From the sequence record OZ335957.1: a DNA stretch of 40,153 nucleotides; one strand, 5' to 3'. Below, piece after piece: positions 1-39,655 of the stretch (position 1 is the stretch's first letter; each line of letters opens with the position of its first letter). Source of the stretch: a phage. A program made the translations under genes and the position numbers. The notes under the pieces were generated by a model, which made no database searches, was not told where the DNA came from, and saw only the letters and a program-made list of their open reading frames with translations.

Positions 1-1764
1 TTGAGTAAAGATTTAGTGGCTCGTCAGGCGCTAATGACTGCCCGTATGAAGGCAGACTTCGTGTTCTTCCTGTTCGTCCTGTGGAAAGCTCTGTCACTAC
101 CAGTCCCGACTCGATGTCAGATTGACATGGCGAAGAAACTATCGGCTGGGGACAACAGGCGTTTCATCCTACAGGCGTTCCGTGGTATCGGGAAGTCATT
201 CATTACGTGCGCATTCGTGGTATGGAAACTGTGGAACAACCCAGACTTGAAGTTCATGATTGTGTCGGCCTCAAAGGAACGAGCCGATGCAAACTCCATC
301 TTCATCAAGCGAATCATCGACCTCATGCCTCAGCTTCGGGAACTCAAACCTAAGCAGGGGCAGCGAGATGCGGTTATCAGCTTCGACGTTGGACCAGCCA
401 AGCCAGACCACTCACCTTCGGTTAAGTCCGTTGGTATCACTGGTCAGTTGACTGGTAGTCGTGCTGACATCCTGATTGCCGATGACGTGGAGGTTCCGAA
501 CAACTCAGCGACTCAGGCTGCCCGAGACCGTCTGTCAGAGCTTGTGAAAGAGTTCGACGCTATCCTGAAGCCGGGAGGTACAATCATCTATCTGGGTACT
601 CCTCAGAACGAGATGACCTTGTATCGTGAGCTGGAAGGCCGTGGGTACACCACTACTATCTGGCCTGCTCGTTATCCACGCGACAGGAAGGACTGGCAGT
701 CTTACGGCGACCGTCTGGCTCCAATGCTTCAGGCAGAGCTTGAAGAGGACCCTGAGTCATTCTACTGGCGTCCGACTGATGAAGTACGCTTCGATGATAC
801 GGACCTTAAGGAACGTGAGCTGTCATATGGTAAGGCTGGCTTCGCTCTACAGTTCATGCTTAACCCGAACCTGAGTGATGCCGAGAAGTACCCACTGAAG
901 CTCCGTGACCTTATCGTAGCGGACTTGGACCCAGCGTCCAGCCCAATGGTCTACCAATGGTTACCGAACCCTCAGAACAAGCGTGAGGACGTTCCTAACG
1001 TTGGACTCATGGGTGACTCGTACCACACGTATCAGACTGTAGGTTCTGCCTTCAGCTCATACACCCAGAAGATTCTGGTCATTGACCCTAGTGGTCGTGG
1101 TAAGGATGAAACTGGCTATGCGGTACTGTATCAGCTTAATGGCTACATCTTCGCTATGGAAGTTGGTGGTATGCGTGGTGGTTATGAAGACTCTACGCTT
1201 GAAGCACTGGCTAAGATTGGTCGTAAGTGGAAGGTCAACGAATACGTCATTGAGGGTAACTTCGGTGATGGTATGTACCTTGAGCTATTCAAGCCTGTAG
1301 CGGCCCGTATCCATCCTGCGGCTGTAACTGAAGTGAAGAGTAAGGGTCAGAAAGAACTCCGCATCTGTGACGTTCTGGAGCCTATCATGGGATCTCACCG
1401 ACTTATCGTTAACGCTGCTGCTATCGTCCAAGACTACCAGTCGGCCTCTGATAAGGATGGTGTTCGTAACCCTATCTACTCTCTCTTCTACCAGATGACA
1501 CGTATCTCTCGTGAACGTGGAGCCTTGGCACACGATGACCGACTTGATGCGCTGGCTATCGGTGTACAGTTCTTCGTTGAGTCTATGGCTAAGGATGCCA
1601 ACAAGGGCGAACGTGAAGTAACTGAGGAGTGGCTGGAGGAGCAGATGGAGAACCCACGGAAAGGCTTCGAGTCCATCCACACTGAGTTCTGGGACAATGG
1701 GGTCCGGGTAACTCATAATACTGACGACGAGCTGGGACTAGGGTCCTACGTTACGTTCCACTAG
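1..1764 (+). CDS. 19: Terminase large subunit (T7 gp19-like), apparently full length with TTG as first codon at window position 1
   Basis: 587-aa ORF collinear with T7 gp19 (586 aa): [13 protein letters not shown], [60 protein letters not shown] motifs. Confidence 0.9.
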
Positions 1765-1858: not shown

Positions 1859-1881
1859 ACTTAACTATCACTATAGGGAAG
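1859..1881 (+). promoter_or_regulatory. Phage single-subunit RNAP promoter (right-end, phiOR-like position), +1 G at 1876
   Basis: ACTTAACTATCACTATA GGGAAG; one of 10 copies of the CTATCACTATAGG core; lies between gene 19 and the terminal repeat. Confidence 0.75.
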
Positions 1882-2820: not shown

Positions 2821-3241
2821 ATAGACACAATGGCTATAGACTTAAGGTCTAAGACATGTTAGTCAAAGACTATATCCTCTTACACCATGGGGCCGACGAT
2901 AGCTTAATCAATATTATTTCAAATTACCTATTGACTATAGGTCCAGACTATGGCCTAATAGCTTCCGTCAACACGACACGGCAACAACCGGATAGTGAAG
3001 ACGCCGGTGTCATCCCGGTTAAGTAGACAGCCTGATAAGTCATACGAACAACAGGCAGATGACAATAAGGTAGTAAGGTCGCTGAGGGCTTCCACTTCAG
3101 CAGGTCGGAAAGGTCCTAAAACCTAACGAGAGTCTGACCAGCTCGCCAAGTCTGCCACTGAGGTGGATAACCAGAGGAGGCAACGTGTCGCCCACTGAGG
3201 GGCTACAGCTCACAGTTTAGGTTAACAGGCTAAACAAATGC

Positions 3242-3271
3242 TTGACAAGATGTAACGATAAGATGTAATAT
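3242..3271 (+). promoter_or_regulatory. Host sigma70-type early promoter (T7 A3-like)
   Basis: -35 TTGACA (3242-3247), 18-bp spacer, -10 TAATAT (3266-3271); flanking sequence resembles the T7 A2/A3 region (..TTGACAA..GTAA..; downstream GCTCTTTAACAATCTGG). Confidence 0.6.
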
Positions 3272-3449
3272 TTACCACATCGAAACAACGGTGATGACCA
3301 ACACTGAAATGGTCTACCTGAAGTCCTCTGACTGAAGGGAATGCTCTTTAACAATCTGGATAAACTCTTAATGTGCGCCGATAGCGACTAACTACAGGGC
3401 CTTTGAGCCTACATCTGAAGGCCCTGACTGATAGTCACTAACTTAACGG

Positions 3450-3704: not shown

Positions 3705-3791
3705 GAGTGATTAACTACAGGTCGTTAGACTGATAGCGGCCTGACTGATAGTCACTAACATACACATAATTAACTTTGAGAGGATATAACT

Positions 3792-4295
3792 ATGGAACGT
3801 AATGCTAACGCATACTATGAGCTGCTGGCTGCAACAGTTGAGGCATTTATCGAGCGTATTCAGTACGACCACCTGACTAAAGATGATGACTACAGCGATG
3901 CGCTGCATGAGGTAGTAGACGGTCAGGTTCCACACTATTACCACGAGATTTTTACGGTGATGGCTGCTGATGGTATAGACCACGAGTTCGAAGACTCTGG
4001 GATGATGCCTGAAACCAAGGACGTAACGCGTATACTACAAGCTCGCATCTATGAGGCGCTTTATAACGATGTGTCTAATAGCTTGGATGTAGTCTGGTTT
4101 GAGGATGAAGAGGCAGACGAAGAGGATGAATATTGGGTAGTTGACGCTAAAACAGGCGCAATAATTGTGCAAGCTGTAGCTCTTGAGGTCGCTACTGCAT
4201 GTGCCAAGGTCAACTATGCAATAGGTCGCCACCTGAAGGTGGAAGACATCAATGATAACGTAGTGTTCGATCCTGCGGCTGAGGACTGCGAGTGA
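3792..4295 (+). CDS. ocr: Ocr-like anti-restriction protein (T7 gp0.3 DNA mimic) with about 50-aa C-terminal extension
   Basis: [43 protein letters not shown] closely matches T7 Ocr; acidic tract DEEADEEDE; RBS GAGAGG. Confidence 0.85.
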
Positions 4296-4444: not shown

Positions 4445-4509
4445 TAAACGAGAGGTCACGACTGATAGGTGGCCTCAAAGATTATCACTTAAATTGATAG
4501 AGGTTAACT

Positions 4510-4599
4510 ATGAGTGTTGGACATTGGGTATGCTTATCTCCGGTCATCTTTCTGATAGCTTGGGGGATATACGACTGTATTAAACGGAAATCACTATGA
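4510..4599 (+). CDS. Hypothetical small hydrophobic peptide (29 aa)
   Basis: ATG after AGAGGT; stop overlaps next start (ATGA); hydrophobic core. Confidence 0.2.
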   Translation: MSVGHWVCLSPVIFLIAWGIYDCIKRKSL

Positions 4600-4793
4600 G
4601 TCTTGCACTATTGATAGCCATAGGCTATGGACTTATCGCATACGTGCTTGTGAGAGACATCAACAAAGCGCGTAAAGTCTACAAATTCAACTATGTACGT
4701 CTGGGCCGCTGGACTGTACGTCAACCTAACGGACGATTCATGCGCAACTTAGCGAACGTCTGGGATATAGCAACTATTGGGAGCAAACTGTAA
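4596..4793 (+). CDS. Hypothetical early membrane protein (65 aa)
   Basis: N-terminal hydrophobic helix LALLIAIGYGLIAYVLV; translationally coupled to flanking ORFs. Confidence 0.45.
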   Translation: MSLALLIAIGYGLIAYVLVRDINKARKVYKFNYVRLGRWTVRQPNGRFMRNLANVWDIATIGSKL

Positions 4794-5053
4794 TGAAAAC
4801 CGTATACATTAACAAACCATCTAGCCATAGCCGTGTAGAGCAAATAGAGCGTGACATGTTCTTACATCGCCGCATGAGGGCTGAGGGCCATAAGTACGAA
4901 CTGATGAGTCTGGCGTTTGGTGGACGACCGATCACTGACGATGGTAAACTTTTAGTCTCAGGCTGGAAGGCGATAGACCAACGGTCAACCATCAAGCACA
5001 CGACTCACGGTGACTTCAGCCATCTCCACGCTAACCCACTGATATGCAAGTGA
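4793..5053 (+). CDS. Hypothetical early protein (86 aa)
   Basis: TAATG coupling with upstream ORF; occupies the region where T7 carries gene 0.7, but far too small to be a kinase. Confidence 0.5.
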   Translation: MKTVYINKPSSHSRVEQIERDMFLHRRMRAEGHKYELMSLAFGGRPITDDGKLLVSGWKAIDQRSTIKHTTHGDFSHLHANPLICK

Positions 5054-5058
5054 TTATG

Positions 5059-5081
5059 ACTTAACTATCACTATAGGACTC
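5059..5081 (+). promoter_or_regulatory. Phage RNAP promoter immediately upstream of the RNAP gene, +1 G at 5076
   Basis: ACTTAACTATCACTATA GGACTC; 20-mer identical to the copy at 1859. Confidence 0.75.
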
Positions 5082-5150
5082 AAGGTCTAAGACTCCAAGT
5101 GAAAGACCAAAGAGACTTTAAGTGAAAGACTAATAACAAGGACTTTAAGT

Positions 5151-7832
5151 ATGAGCGTCATCTCTATTGATAAACACGACTTCTCTGATGTGTCTAACGC
5201 CATTGAGCCGTTTAACCTGCTGGCTGACCACTACGGGCAAGACCTTGCAGTCAAACAGCTTCAGCTTGAGCATGAGGCCTACACTGAAGGCGAGCGACGT
5301 TTCATCAAGAACCTTGAGCGTCAGACCGAGCGAGGGGAACTGGCAGACAATCAGGTCGCCAAGCCTTTGATGCAGACTCTGGTTCCTAAGATTGCGCAAG
5401 CCGTCAAGGAGTGGCACGAAGGTCCAGACGGGAAGCTGTCAACCTCACGTCCGAGCGTAGCGTTCACCATGTTAAGCACTGAAGAGAAGGCCGTCAAGGA
5501 CCGCTCTCTTCGCATCTCCTGCGAGTCTGCTGCGGTTATCATACTGAAGGTCATCCTCTCCAAGCTGGTCAAGCCTGAAGGTATACCGATTACACCGATG
5601 GCCTCCGCGATAGGTCGCACACTTGAGGATGAAATCCGATTCGGTCGCATTCGTGACAAGGAGAAGGAGCACTTCAAGAAGGCGATAGCTGATAACCTGA
5701 ACAAGAGAGCCGGGGCATCATACAAGAAAGCCTACATGCAAGCGGTCGAGACATCCATGCTGGAGCAAGGCCAACTAGAAGATGCGTGGGGAACTTGGAG
5801 TCCGACCGAGGCTGTCCACGTTGGAATCAAGATGCTGGAGATTGTCATACAGTCAACACAACTGGTCGAGCTTAAGCGTTACGGTGCTGGCAATGCAACG
5901 GCTGACGTTGAGATGGTCCACCTGTCAGACTTCTGGGTCAAGAAGATGGCACAACGCGGCTTCAGCCTTGCGGGTATCGCTCCAGTCTACCAACCTTGCG
6001 TAGTTCCACCTAAGCCGTGGACTGGTGTCGTAGGCGGTGGGTACTGGGCCAAAGGTCGCAGACCATTACCACTGATTCGCTTAGGGTCTAAGTCTGCGGT
6101 GGCACGTTACGAAGACGTGTATATGCCTGAAGTCTATGACGCTGTTAACATCATCCAGAATACACCTTGGAAAGTGAACAAGAAGGTTCTGGACGTGGTG
6201 AACATGGTCGAGAAGTTGAACAACACGCCTATTGATGACATCCCTCAGATGGAGCCACTGAAGCCTGAAGAATATGCGGGTGAGACTGAAGAGGAACTCA
6301 AGGCGTGGAAGAAAGCGGCTGCTGGTATCTATCGCCGCGAGAAGGCCAGACAGTCACGCAGATTGTCGCTGAGCTTTATCGTTAACCAAGCGAACAAGTT
6401 CTCTCAGTTCAAGGCCATCTGGTTCCCGTACAACATGGACTGGCGCGGTCGCGTCTACGCTGTGCCGATGTTCAACCCTCAGGGTAACGACATGCAAAAG
6501 GGTCTACTGACTCTGGCAGTCGGTAAGCCTATTGGTGCTGATGGTTTCAAATGGCTGAAGGTCCACGGTGCAAACTGTGCGGGTGTCGATAAAGTCACCT
6601 TCGAGGAGCGCATCAAGTGGGTGGAAGACAACCACGACAACATCATGGCTGCTGCTAAGGCACCGATGGATAGCATTGAGTGGTGGGGCAAGTTAGACTC
6701 TCCTTTCTGCTTCCTTGCGTTCTGCTTCGAGTATGCTGGCGTGATGCACCACGGATTGTCTTACTCCTGCTCGCTGCCGATAGCTTTCGATGGGTCCTGC
6801 TCTGGGATTCAGCACTTCAGCGCTATGCTTCGTGACCACATCGGTGGACATGCAGTAAACCTGACGCCTTCCGGTAAGGTCCAAGACATCTACCGCATCG
6901 TTTCTGACCGCATTGAGGAAGAGCTTAAAGTCCTGCTGGTTAACGGCACGGACAACGAGATGGTAACTCACGAGGACAAGAAAACTGGTGAGATTACCGA
7001 GCGTCTCAAGCTGGGGACACGAGAGCTGGCCCGTCAGTGGCTGACCTACGGTATGTCACGCAAGGTTACTAAGCGCTCAGTCATGACTCTGGCCTACGGG
7101 TCGAAAGAGTACGGCTTCGCAGACCAAGTTTACGAGGACATCGTGATGCCCGCGATTGACTCAGGGTCTGGCGCTATGTTCACTGAACCAAGCCAAGCAT
7201 CTCGCTTCATGGCTAAGATGATTTGGGAAGCTGTGAGTGTGACCGTAGTTGCTGCGGTTGACGCGATGAAATGGCTTCAGGGTGCTGCCAAGCTGCTGGC
7301 GGCTGAAGTGAAGGACAAGAAGACTGGCGAAATCCTGAAGCCTTGCCTTCCGGTACACTGGGTCACACCTGATGGGTTCCCGGTCTGGCAGGAATACCGC
7401 AAGAAGGATACCACTCGTCTGAATCTGATGTTCTTAGGGTCATTCAACCTTCAGCCTACCGTCAACAAAGGCACGAAGAAAGAGCTGGATAAGCACAAGC
7501 AGGAGTCAGGCATTAGCCCGAACTTCGTCCACTCACAAGATGGTAGCCACCTCCGCAAGACTGTAGTCCACACGCATCGCAAGTATGGCGTGATGTCATT
7601 CGCAGTGATTCATGATAGCTTCGGGACAATCCCGGCTGACGCTGAATATCTGTTCCGTGGTGTCCGTGAGACGATGGTCGAGACCTACCGCGACAACGAT
7701 GTGCTGCTTGACTTCTACGAGCAGTTTGAATACCAGCTTCACGAGAGCCAGCGCAATAAGTTGCCAGAGCTTCCGAAGAAAGGTAAACTGAATATCGAAG
7801 ACATCTTGTCTTCAGACTTTGCATTCGCTTAA
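5151..7832 (+). CDS. 1: Single-subunit DNA-directed RNA polymerase (T7 gp1-like)
   Basis: 893 aa; collinear with T7 RNAP: PFNLLADHYG, CVVPPKPWTG, WFPYNMDWRGRVYAV, FCFLAFCFEY, IHDSFGT, C-terminal FAFA. Confidence 0.98.
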   Translation: MSVISIDKHDFSDVSNAIEPFNLLADHYGQDLAVKQLQLEHEAYTEGERRFIKNLERQTERGELADNQVAKPLMQTLVPKIAQAVKEWHEGPDGKLSTSRPSVAFTMLSTEEKAVKDRSLRISCESAAVIILKVILSKLVKPEGIPITPMASAIGRTLEDEIRFGRIRDKEKEHFKKAIADNLNKRAGASYKKAYMQAVETSMLEQGQLEDAWGTWSPTEAVHVGIKMLEIVIQSTQLVELKRYGAGNATADVEMVHLSDFWVKKMAQRGFSLAGIAPVYQPCVVPPKPWTGVVGGGYWAKGRRPLPLIRLGSKSAVARYEDVYMPEVYDAVNIIQNTPWKVNKKVLDVVNMVEKLNNTPIDDIPQMEPLKPEEYAGETEEELKAWKKAAAGIYRREKARQSRRLSLSFIVNQANKFSQFKAIWFPYNMDWRGRVYAVPMFNPQGNDMQKGLLTLAVGKPIGADGFKWLKVHGANCAGVDKVTFEERIKWVEDNHDNIMAAAKAPMDSIEWWGKLDSPFCFLAFCFEYAGVMHHGLSYSCSLPIAFDGSCSGIQHFSAMLRDHIGGHAVNLTPSGKVQDIYRIVSDRIEEELKVLLVNGTDNEMVTHEDKKTGEITERLKLGTRELARQWLTYGMSRKVTKRSVMTLAYGSKEYGFADQVYEDIVMPAIDSGSGAMFTEPSQASRFMAKMIWEAVSVTVVAAVDAMKWLQGAAKLLAAEVKDKKTGEILKPCLPVHWVTPDGFPVWQEYRKKDTTRLNLMFLGSFNLQPTVNKGTKKELDKHKQESGISPNFVHSQDGSHLRKTVVHTHRKYGVMSFAVIHDSFGTIPADAEYLFRGVRETMVETYRDNDVLLDFYEQFEYQLHESQRNKLPELPKKGKLNIEDILSSDFAFA

Positions 7833-7846
7833 CAGGAGAGAGAGCT

Positions 7847-8062
7847 ATGAAATATGCACACAAGCATACTGGCGTTAATGGTGGGACTCAAATCGTGACC
7901 GTAACAGAACACAACGGCAAGGGTCTGGTGAAGACCACGGTCATCCCTACCGAGATGTCCAAGCAGCTTAACATCCCGTTCAAGACTCTTGTAGATCTGG
8001 TCGAGTCCAGCCACGAGAAGTACCTGAAGGACGCAGTGTCAAAACTGGAGCAGACCAAATGA
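7847..8062 (+). CDS. Hypothetical protein (71 aa) between RNAP gene and downstream promoter
   Basis: RBS AGGAGAGAGAG; no recognised motif. Confidence 0.5.
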   Translation: MKYAHKHTGVNGGTQIVTVTEHNGKGLVKTTVIPTEMSKQLNIPFKTLVDLVESSHEKYLKDAVSKLEQTK

Positions 8063-8136: not shown

Positions 8137-8159
8137 CCTAAACTATCACTATAGGATTA
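8137..8159 (+). promoter_or_regulatory. Phage RNAP promoter (phi1.1-like position), +1 G at 8154
   Basis: CCTAAACTATCACTATA GGATTA. Confidence 0.8.
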
Positions 8160-8200
8160 GACTCAAGGTCATGACTCAAAGTCGTGGCCTTCATGATTAA
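8158..8200 (+). promoter_or_regulatory. Conserved hairpin element, copy 1 (RNase III site-like, R1.1 position)
   Basis: TAGACTCAAGGTCAT..GTGGCCTTCATGATTA; stem AAGGTCA/TGGCCTT conserved in three copies (8158, 15524, 39611). Confidence 0.4.
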
Positions 8201-8232
8201 CCCTAAATAAACACTACTGGAGATTTAACCGT

Positions 8233-9720: not shown

Positions 9721-9731
9721 CTAAATGTCAA

Positions 9732-9768
9732 CCCAGTGGTCTTAGGACTGCTGGGTTTCTTTGCTTTG
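9732..9768 (+). terminator. Intrinsic terminator after ligase gene (T7 TE-like position)
   Basis: 10-bp stem CCCAGTGGTC/GACTGCTGGG (two G-U pairs), loop TTAG, followed by TTTCTTTGCTTTG. Confidence 0.5.
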
Positions 9769-10848: not shown

Positions 10849-11007
10849 ATGACTGACGTAGAAAAGAAATACATCGTGGAGCTTGAGGGTCGCGTTCAGT
10901 CATTCGAGGTTCCGGTGTACGCAAAGTCTCTTGAAGAGGCTACCCTGAAGTCCCAAGAGTATGAGGACGCTGGGTTTGTGGTCGGACGGATTCGTCCTGA
11001 GACCTAA
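10849..11007 (+). CDS. 2: gp2-like inhibitor of host RNA polymerase (52 aa)
   Basis: [14 protein letters not shown]...[10 protein letters not shown] matches T7 gp2 (SFEVPIYAETLDEA...GFEVTRVRP); AGGAG RBS; internal start of ORF-track 10771 frame. Confidence 0.75.
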
Positions 11008-12210: not shown

Positions 12211-12665
12211 TGACTACCTGTAAAGACCTTGAAGTTGGAACACGTTACAGATTCTCAAAGAACACCCTGTTGAATAACCCCAGCTTCACTGATGCTGTTT
12301 TCGAAAAGCGAGAAGACCATAGCGTAATTGTGGAGAAGGGGTGGCATCCTGAGGATTATATCGGTGAGACTACCAGCTGGAATGGTCACGAGACCTACAG
12401 TGTAGAAGTTGTTGACCAGCCTCAAGTCCTGCCAGCTTCGAGCGTACCTCCTGTGACTGTGAAGCGTGAAGTCCTGACAATCGACAAGATTGGTGTAGGC
12501 CAGACGTTCATCGTCCATGGAAAGCCTGAAGAAGTTTACGTGAAGATTAGCAACTCACACGTCTTCAACCATAAGCGTCTCCAGATGCACACCACGGACG
12601 CACAACGCTTCACCCAGCACCTGAATCTAGTGGTCGTAGAATTGGTGGTGTACAATGGTAAGTAA
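12207..12665 (+). CDS. Hypothetical protein (152 aa) inserted between endonuclease I and lysozyme genes
   Basis: ORF coupled to both neighbours (overlapping start/stop); no T7 counterpart at this position; no motif recognised. Confidence 0.6.
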   Translation: MMTTCKDLEVGTRYRFSKNTLLNNPSFTDAVFEKREDHSVIVEKGWHPEDYIGETTSWNGHETYSVEVVDQPQVLPASSVPPVTVKREVLTIDKIGVGQTFIVHGKPEEVYVKISNSHVFNHKRLQMHTTDAQRFTQHLNLVVVELVVYNGK

Positions 12666-13113
12666 GGTACAGTTCAACCCACGGTCCCGGACTGACGCTA
12701 TCTTCGTTCACTGTTCGGCTACCAAGCCAGAGATGGACATCGGGGTAGAGACCATCCGTATGTGGCACAAGCAGCAAGGCTGGCTGGACGTAGGCTACCA
12801 CTTTATCATCAAGCGCGATGGTACTGTGGAAGAGGGTCGCCCGGTAAACGTCGTAGGGTCACACGTTAAGGACTGGAACTCACGGTCTGTAGGCGTCTGC
12901 CTTGTAGGTGGAATTGACGCTAAGGGCAAGTTTGAAGCTAACTTCACTCCTGACCAGATGAACTCCCTACGCAACAAGCTGGCTGACCTGAAGTCCCTGT
13001 ATCCTCAGGCAGAAATCAAAGCACATCATGATGTAGCACCAAAGGCGTGTCCAAGTTTCGACTTACAGCGCTGGCTGTCTATTAATGAGCTGGTCACTTC
13101 CGACCACGGTTAA
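12655..13113 (+). CDS. 3.5: Lysozyme / N-acetylmuramoyl-L-alanine amidase (T7 gp3.5-like)
   Basis: DAIFVHCSATKP, WLDVGYHFIIKRDGTVEEGR, HHDVAPKACPSFDL, NELVTSD match T7 lysozyme. Confidence 0.95.
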   Translation: MVSKVQFNPRSRTDAIFVHCSATKPEMDIGVETIRMWHKQQGWLDVGYHFIIKRDGTVEEGRPVNVVGSHVKDWNSRSVGVCLVGGIDAKGKFEANFTPDQMNSLRNKLADLKSLYPQAEIKAHHDVAPKACPSFDLQRWLSINELVTSDHG

Positions 13114-15523: not shown

Positions 15524-15566
15524 TAGACTCAAGGTCATTCATAGCGAGTGGCCTTTATGATTAGAC
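15524..15566 (+). promoter_or_regulatory. Conserved hairpin element, copy 2 (RNase III site-like, R4.7 position)
   Basis: TAGACTCAAGGTCATTCATAGCGAGTGGCCTTTATGATTAGACT. Confidence 0.4.
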
Positions 15567-15584
15567 TAAAGCGGAGGATTAACC

Positions 15585-25133: not shown

Positions 25134-25170
25134 CCCCTTGGGTGCCTTCGGGTGCTTGAGGGGTTTTTTG
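25134..25170 (+). terminator. Intrinsic terminator for phage RNAP (T7 Tphi-like)
   Basis: CCCCTTGGGTGCCTTCGGGTGCTTGAGGGG hairpin followed by TTTTTT; close to T7 Tphi (AACCCCTTGGGGCCTCTAAACGGGTCTTGAGGGGTTTTTTG). Confidence 0.9.
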
Positions 25171-39610: not shown

Positions 39611-39655
39611 TAGACTCAAGGTCATTACTATATGTAGTGGCCTTTATGGTTAACA
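39611..39655 (+). promoter_or_regulatory. Conserved hairpin element, copy 3 (RNase III site-like, R18.5 position)
   Basis: TAGACTCAAGGTCATTACTATATGTAGTGGCCTTTATGGTTAAC. Confidence 0.4.

Follow-up and report, generated by a model that had tools for sequence, protein, structure and literature searches.

It is likely that the element at 5059–5081, directly ahead of the RNA polymerase gene (gene 1), is a functional promoter for the phage's own RNA polymerase, that no other promoter of this kind precedes it on the physical genome of K1F-type phages, and that gene 1 would feed its own expression through it. The function of this element as a cognate promoter is well supported by comparison of promoter and polymerase sequences, and positive autoregulation of gene 1 through it is possible and, from the arrangement of signals in the region, plausible. 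The element itself is already known, as it is annotated as a phage promoter in the genomes of phages EcoDS1, CR44b and CR8. The reading given in a preliminary description of this DNA, that of a phage-specific promoter, agrees with these annotations as well as with the intergenic position of the element, its conservation, and its covariation with the specificity loop of the polymerase. Since the whole genus shares it and public records already annotate it, the promoter can be considered an ordinary one.

The window, that is, the whole stretch of DNA that was analysed, is a complete, circularly permuted genome of 40,153 bases from a K1F-like coliphage (Autographiviridae, Studiervirinae, Kayfunavirus), and represents another isolate of the same genus as EcoDS1, K1F, and CR44b. 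In the region 4500–8000, its nucleotide identity is 98.5% to Escherichia phage 216Ecol046PP and 96% to K1F. Gene 1 alone is 96–98.5% identical to its counterparts in these two phages, and the specificity loop of the encoded polymerase has exactly the K1F sequence. In the alignment, window position 2532 corresponds to the physical left end of K1F and EcoDS1, and the terminal repeat (~180 bp) is present once in the window (region 1–2710, left end 2532). Gene 1 is preceded by two predicted host sigma-70 promoters, the second of which, found by the consensus scan, is also consistent with the annotated host promoters of EcoDS1. A Tphi-like site was found only at 25145. The features discussed below are listed in Table 1.

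Table 1. Features of the window relevant to the promoter ahead of gene 1 (positions refer to the whole window).
Feature	Position	Strand	Remarks
Terminase gene 19	1–1764		Pfam Terminase-T7 domain; the window opens inside the gene
Sister promoter copy, phiOR analogue downstream of terminase gene 19	1859–1881	+	~670 nt before the physical genome end
Predicted host sigma-70 early promoter, TTGACT...	2932–2968	+	Homologue of the annotated EcoDS1 host promoter 469–505
Predicted host sigma-70 early promoter, TTGACA-18-TAATAT	3242–3271	+	Consensus scan
ocr	3792–4295
Phage RNA polymerase promoter (−17 to +6), ACTTAACTATCACTATAGGACTC	5059–5081	+	Exact match; 'phi1' promoter of the K1F lineage
Possible composite hairpin, ~64 nt, irregular	5065–5128	+	UCACU (5068–5072, promoter core) pairs with AGUGA (5121–5125)
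Leader of the predicted phage-polymerase transcript, 75 nt	5076–5150	+	A-rich (43% A, 63% A+T); repeated GACTnnAAGT words
GACTCAAGGT motif and weak hairpin (CUC / GGUCU ... AGACC / GAG)	5077–5114	+
Gene 1, single-subunit T7-type RNA polymerase, 893 aa	5151–7832	+	Pfam RNA_pol (1.2e-106) and RPOL_N
Early terminator TE for host polymerase, after the ligase gene	9730–9767	+	12-bp stem, then a T run; homologous to the TE annotated in EcoDS1
Gene 2, host RNA polymerase inhibitor	10849–11007	+	Pfam RNA_pol_inhib (1.9e-20)
Gene 3.5, amidase/lysozyme	12655–13113	+	Pfam Amidase_2 (4.6e-16)

The promoter is intergenic, beginning 5 nt past the stop codon of gene 0.38 (which ends at 5053) in a gap of 97 nt. 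It had been placed 75 bp ahead of the polymerase start codon, and this holds: the sequence ACTTAACTATCACTATAGG occupies 5059–5077, with the predicted +1 at G5076, a leader of 75 nt, and the ATG at 5151–5153. Like promoters of the T7 group, the element spans ~23 bp (−17 to +6), contains the CACTATAG core, places initiation at a G, and is one of many copies that are intergenic and co-oriented with the genes. A search with the promoter pattern, allowing up to three mismatches, gave 11 matches in the window, all on the + strand, against 0.02 expected. In the position-weight scan these 11 sites scored 30.8–37.2 bits (25–36 bits in the leave-one-out test), and the next best site reached 14.7 bits. 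The copy at 5059 had a leave-one-out score of 31.9 bits, which is inside the 25–36 bit range of the other ten. Its start, GGAC, is shared with the early/middle promoters at 8137, 9804, and 11003, while the late promoters start with GGGA.

An element of 176 nt containing this region was found in 222 phage records. Within a set of 80 IMG/VR loci encoding related polymerases, a cognate promoter is located 82–109 nt before gene 1 in all 21 of the 21 loci whose polymerase is at least 79% identical. Loci of the T7, T3, and KP32/K11 types (polymerase 58–64% identical) have no phage promoter directly before gene 1; the relatives of the T7, T3, and KP32 types have the canonical hairpin of RNase III site R1 directly before this gene. 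Phage promoters inside the early region of other relatives were found at −629, −996, and −1402 from gene 1. A pattern scan of IMG/VR for further variants of the leader added almost no diversity.

Three lineages differ from each other at about −12 to −8, where AACTAT, ACCCT, and GGTA are found, and in each of them the copy before gene 1 follows the other promoters of its own phage. The K1F type has the promoter AACTATCACTATAGG, with the specificity part AACTATCAC, and a polymerase with the loop RLNLMFLGSFNLQ. Cronobacter GW1-like phages have the promoter TAAACCCTCACTATAGG, with the specificity part AACCCTCAC (ACCCT), and the loop RLDLMFLGTFRLQ, which carries a T3-like Asp. The position of this Asp, as carried by T3, sets the −10/−11 preference in the T7/T3 pair. 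Citrobacter phage CR8 has the promoter AAGGAAGGTACACTATAGG, with the specificity part GGTACAC, and a different loop. The match between specificity region (about −12 to −8) and polymerase loop that is expected of promoters of the T7 group is therefore seen here as well. According to the literature, the K1F specificity loop acts on K1F-consensus promoters in vivo (PMC3458549), and the K1F polymerase drives such promoters in vivo (PMC12218169).

A departure of a different kind was observed in the Pisces-type sub-lineage of Kayfunavirus, which comprises two IMG/VR loci (L013 and L015), LET1 (L174), Pisces (L175), and L176. Here the copy before gene 1 is CACTAAAGG, compared with CACTATAGG for the other promoters of the phage, and the difference is at −2. 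Given this departure, high promoter strength may not be what selection keeps at this site.

Among the closest relatives, EcoDS1 (NC_011042) has an identical 23-bp promoter, annotated as promoter 'phi' at 2244–2266, and an identical leader; in K1F, the promoter is identical and the leader nearly so, and CR44b carries the same element. In EcoDS1, K1F, and CR44b the promoter is again found in the gap that separates gene 0.38 from gene 1, phiOL is missing, and only a few substitutions in the flanks distinguish them from the window. In CR8 (Caroctavirus), the predicted promoter (3356–3378) is likewise located after gene 0.38, ~100 nt before gene 1, but it differs from that of the window in the specificity sequence, the specificity loop of the polymerase, and the leader.

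The preliminary description contrasted this arrangement with that of T7, the polymerase gene of which was said to be transcribed only by the host enzyme. This is a simplification, and the contrast was overstated, since in both T7 and T3 the promoter phiOL lies upstream of gene 1. Both phiOL and the element at 5059 are promoters for the phage polymerase, lie ahead of gene 1 in the same orientation, and come before every other phage promoter of the physical genome. Unlike the element at 5059, phiOL precedes the host promoters A1–A3 (at 405 in the T7 record and at 366–388 in that of T3) and is ~2.7 kb away from gene 1, and the only signals immediately ahead of gene 1 in T7 and T3 are the minor host promoter C and the RNase III site R1. 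The case of phiOL in these two phages illustrates that an upstream position alone is no proof of a role in feedback. We know of no notable autoregulation that has been ascribed to T7 or T3 phiOL.

No analogue of phiOL was found in the window, as the weight-matrix scan gave nothing above 14.7 bits outside the 11 sites. In K1F, EcoDS1, and the window, no phage promoter is present from the left end (window position 2532) to the promoter of gene 1, so K1F-type genomes lack phiOL. To judge from these genomes, it is the missing phiOL together with the promoter directly before gene 1 that sets the K1F lineage apart. The whole lineage combines a cognate promoter directly before gene 1 with the lack of phiOL, which shows that even close coliphage relatives do not all obey the textbook T7 rule of a polymerase gene that is early and transcribed by the host enzyme.

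The promoter of gene 1 has a sister copy at 1859, and the preliminary description reported the two as sharing an identical 20-mer. The identity itself was confirmed, while the string quoted for it has 19 letters; with the preceding G included, the identical stretch is 20 nt long (5058–5077 and 1858–1877). Over 5031–5077 and 1831–1877, 39 of 47 positions match (83%), and the homology of the two copies takes in the 28 nt that precede the promoter, reaching the 3′ end of gene 0.38. Because the promoter at 5059 and its upstream flank resemble the phiOR analogue at 1859, the comparison suggests that one of the two copies arose by duplication of the other.

A self-transcribed polymerase gene should have a cognate promoter on the same strand, no terminator between the two, a usable ribosome-binding site, and an independent host-polymerase route to the first polymerase molecules, and each of these features is present here. 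No terminator-like sites were found between 5076 and 9237, and a Shine-Dalgarno sequence, AAGGA, is located at 5138–5142, 8 nt ahead of the ATG. Folding of the stretch 5076–5165 was no better than that of shuffled sequence (z +0.68). The leader was also considered as a regulatory RNA; this was rejected on the same z value and on that obtained for the 126-nt stretch 5040–5165 (z −0.28). An unstructured leader with AAGGA at this distance from the ATG should permit translation of the RNA, and gene 1 could in this way amplify its own expression; taken together with the lack of a terminator, these features make self-transcription of gene 1 possible.

Under the arrangement proposed, the host polymerase would start at the sigma-70 promoters near 2932 and 3242 and transcribe the early genes, including ocr, gene 1, and the ligase gene, as far as TE at 9730. 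These predicted promoters must be the independent host-polymerase route to the first gene 1 product. The newly made phage polymerase would then initiate at G5076 and produce an RNA with the A-rich, weakly structured leader of 75 nt and a good ribosome-binding site, encoding gene 1 followed by genes 1.1–1.3 and beyond. Gene 1 would thereby exert a positive feedback on itself, the size of which we infer, and its transcription would persist after gp2 shuts off the host enzyme. By analogy with the class II promoters of T7, the gp3.5 lysozyme would presumably damp the loop later in infection; T7 lysozyme (the gene 3.5 protein) is a natural brake on the phage polymerase. A search of the literature for a transcriptome of K1F or of any Kayfunavirus found none.

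Promoters before a polymerase gene have been described in more distant phages. For the promoter phi-A8 of Vibrio phage phiA318, autoregulation was proposed by the authors (PMC4099482), and the promoter phi1 of Pseudomonas phage LUZ100 was read as a part of a positive feedback loop (PMC10134795); in both cases, the loop is primed by host transcription according to the authors (PMC4099482, PMC10134795). Both phages are distant members of Autographiviridae. In phiA318, a kinase gene is inserted between the promoter and the polymerase gene, and the loop of LUZ100 is tied to a MarR-type lysogeny switch, unlike the K1F type. The idea of autoregulation is already published for these two phages and the arrangement itself is annotated in public records; therefore, the window adds no new kind of element. 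As a synthetic counterpart, the T7 'autogene' couples the polymerase gene to a promoter that its own product recognises, which makes its expression self-amplifying. The autogene is engineered, whereas the K1F-type arrangement is natural and would be primed by host promoters. The arrangement could matter for models of infection timing, for phage engineering, and for synthetic circuits built with parts from the K1F polymerase and its promoters.

The direct repeats that had been noted in the leader were both recovered: AAGTGAAAGAC occurs in exact copies at 5097 and 5120, and GACTTTAAGT at 5114 and 5141. Combined, they amount to three to four copies of a GACTnnAAGT-type word, spaced by 14, 23, and 27 nt. 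The motif GACTCAAGGT, described as recurring, indeed has 10 exact occurrences in the window, and 30 occurrences when up to one mismatch is allowed, against 3.85 expected. Of the exact copies, four are found on the − strand. Words of the CTnnAGGT / ACCTnnAG form (CTTCAGGT, CTGAAGGT, CTGTAGGT, CTCAAGGT, and others) are among the commonest 8-mers of the window; they are found on both strands and also within genes, and RNase III sites account for only a part of their excess.

The segment 5077–5114, in which this motif is accompanied by a weak hairpin, is by its sequence a putative degenerate copy of the T7-type RNase III hairpin (R1) that is found at this place in T7 and T3. In T7-type RNase III hairpins, the motif GACTCAAGGT makes up the 5′ arm, and its copies at 8160, 15526, and 39613 form canonical hairpins of the form ACUCAAGGUCAU...GUGGCCUUUAUGAUUA. 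A site of the R1 kind is an irregular hairpin of ~50–60 nt with the upper stem AGGUCAU...GUGGCCU and a bulge on the 3′ side, and of this the leader has only the 5′ arm, ACUCAAGGUC. A larger, composite hairpin (5065–5128) is possible, in which a part of the promoter core would pair with the leader; it is predicted with an MFE of −16.8 kcal/mol (z −2.35, with 5 of 200 shuffles as good), and would be limited to read-through transcripts made by the host polymerase. Comparable hairpins are predicted for the GW1 type (z −2.42) and also for the Pisces type (z −2.99), where the upper part is not the same. In the leader of the Pisces type, 11 nt (CTTTAGTGATA) repeat the promoter core perfectly in inverted orientation, and the promoter-leader pairing in the Pisces and LET1 types is a perfect one of 11 bp, which none of 1000 shuffles equalled. 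For the K1F type, the arm-to-arm duplex alone was not significant (207 of 1000 shuffles as good). The promoter-leader duplex was accordingly discarded as a proof of the hairpin, as it lacked significance in both of the types K1F and GW1. In the MAFFT alignment, the AGTGA box is out of place. An antisense promoter formed by the inverted core of Pisces-type leaders was also considered, and it was rejected on inspection, as the specificity positions mismatch.

A reading that competes in part with that of a self-feeding promoter, and is compatible with it, holds that the region is chiefly an element of RNA processing or structure, the counterpart of R1. The hairpin at 5065–5128 in read-through RNA would then be cut or would stabilise the RNA, the RNA made by the phage polymerase would lack the 5′ arm, and the fate of a gene 1 mRNA would therefore depend on the polymerase that made it. 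The reading draws on the canonical R1 hairpin at the equivalent place in T7-, T3-, and KP32-type relatives, on the use of GACTCAAGGT as the 5′ arm of the three canonical hairpins of the window, on the z values of the composite hairpin in three types (−2.35, −2.42, and −2.99), and on the perfect pairing in Pisces and LET1 (0 of 1000 shuffles). In addition, a box AGTGA(A/T)AAGAC is retained in all lineages despite the divergence of the leader between the promoter and the box. However, the consensus of the 3′ arm of canonical sites, GUGGCCUU(U)AUGAUU, is missing from the leader, the promoter-leader duplex is at the level of chance in the K1F and GW1 types (207–499 of 1000 shuffles as good), and the predicted upper structure varies between lineages. 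The changes seen between lineages were one-sided improvements of the pairing, with no compensatory double changes among them, and an Rfam scan of the whole window gave no match. On balance, we consider this reading rather unlikely. It appears improbable that the K1F-type promoter lies within the 5′ arm of an R1 hairpin that has diverged, as a switch of mRNA fate coupled to the hand-over between the polymerases; if this were true, gene 1 mRNA made by the host enzyme would carry the full element, and that made by the phage enzyme would start inside it and escape.

It is also conceivable, albeit distinctly improbable, that the promoter is a relocated phiOL with a main role related to DNA, either priming at a secondary replication origin or polymerase-driven entry of the genome. 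The lack of any phage promoter between the left end (2532) and 5059, i.e., of phiOL, would fit such a role, and the similarity to the phiOR analogue at 1859 (20 nt identical, 83% over 47 nt) recalls the phiOL/phiOR pair of T7. The leader is A+T-rich (63%) and has one primase-type site (TGGTC, − strand) at 5105, but the A+T content is inside the 52–64% range of promoter leaders, an extended AT-rich tract is absent, and the promoter is 2.5 kb away from the left end of the genome. No origin-specific features were found in the region, and an origin-like signature of the phiOL/phiOR type was rejected, as the A+T content is ordinary among the 11 promoter leaders and the primase-type site is a single one. 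That the promoter match is a non-functional relic or a product of chance is hardly credible: the chance expectation is only 0.02 matches, the element is conserved in 222 records, and it has changed together with polymerase specificity in three lineages. Because of this covariation, such a reading is effectively refuted. The functional promoter for the phage's own polymerase, feeding gene 1, remains the preferred interpretation.

Several minor observations were made in the course of the analysis. Four canonical T7-type RNase III-like hairpins, with an AGGUC...GGCCU upper stem and a bulge on the 3′ side, are located at 3718–3760, 8160–8205, 15526–15570, and 39613–39655, that is, ahead of ocr, behind the phi1.1-type promoter, ahead of the DNA polymerase gene, and behind gene 18. 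The four have z values from −2.7 to −5.3, and the arm GACTCAAGGTCAT is common to three of the four. Between the two predicted host promoters, ~170 nt (3075–3241) have no counterpart in K1F, the alignment to which stops at 3074 and restarts at 3242. Two database entries, MT350292 (Enterococcus phage EFA-1) and PV615262 (Acinetobacter phage vB_Aba_01KA), are 94–97% identical to this coliphage region, and their non-enterobacterial host labels look doubtful. Finally, short tandem repeats adjoin the genome end at 2732–2774 (ACTACCTACAGTCTA, 2.9 copies) and at 2412–2444 (a 17-nt unit, 2.1 copies). These arrays are similar to the arrays of short repeats near the ends of the T7 genome, and relatives have other repeat units at the same place.
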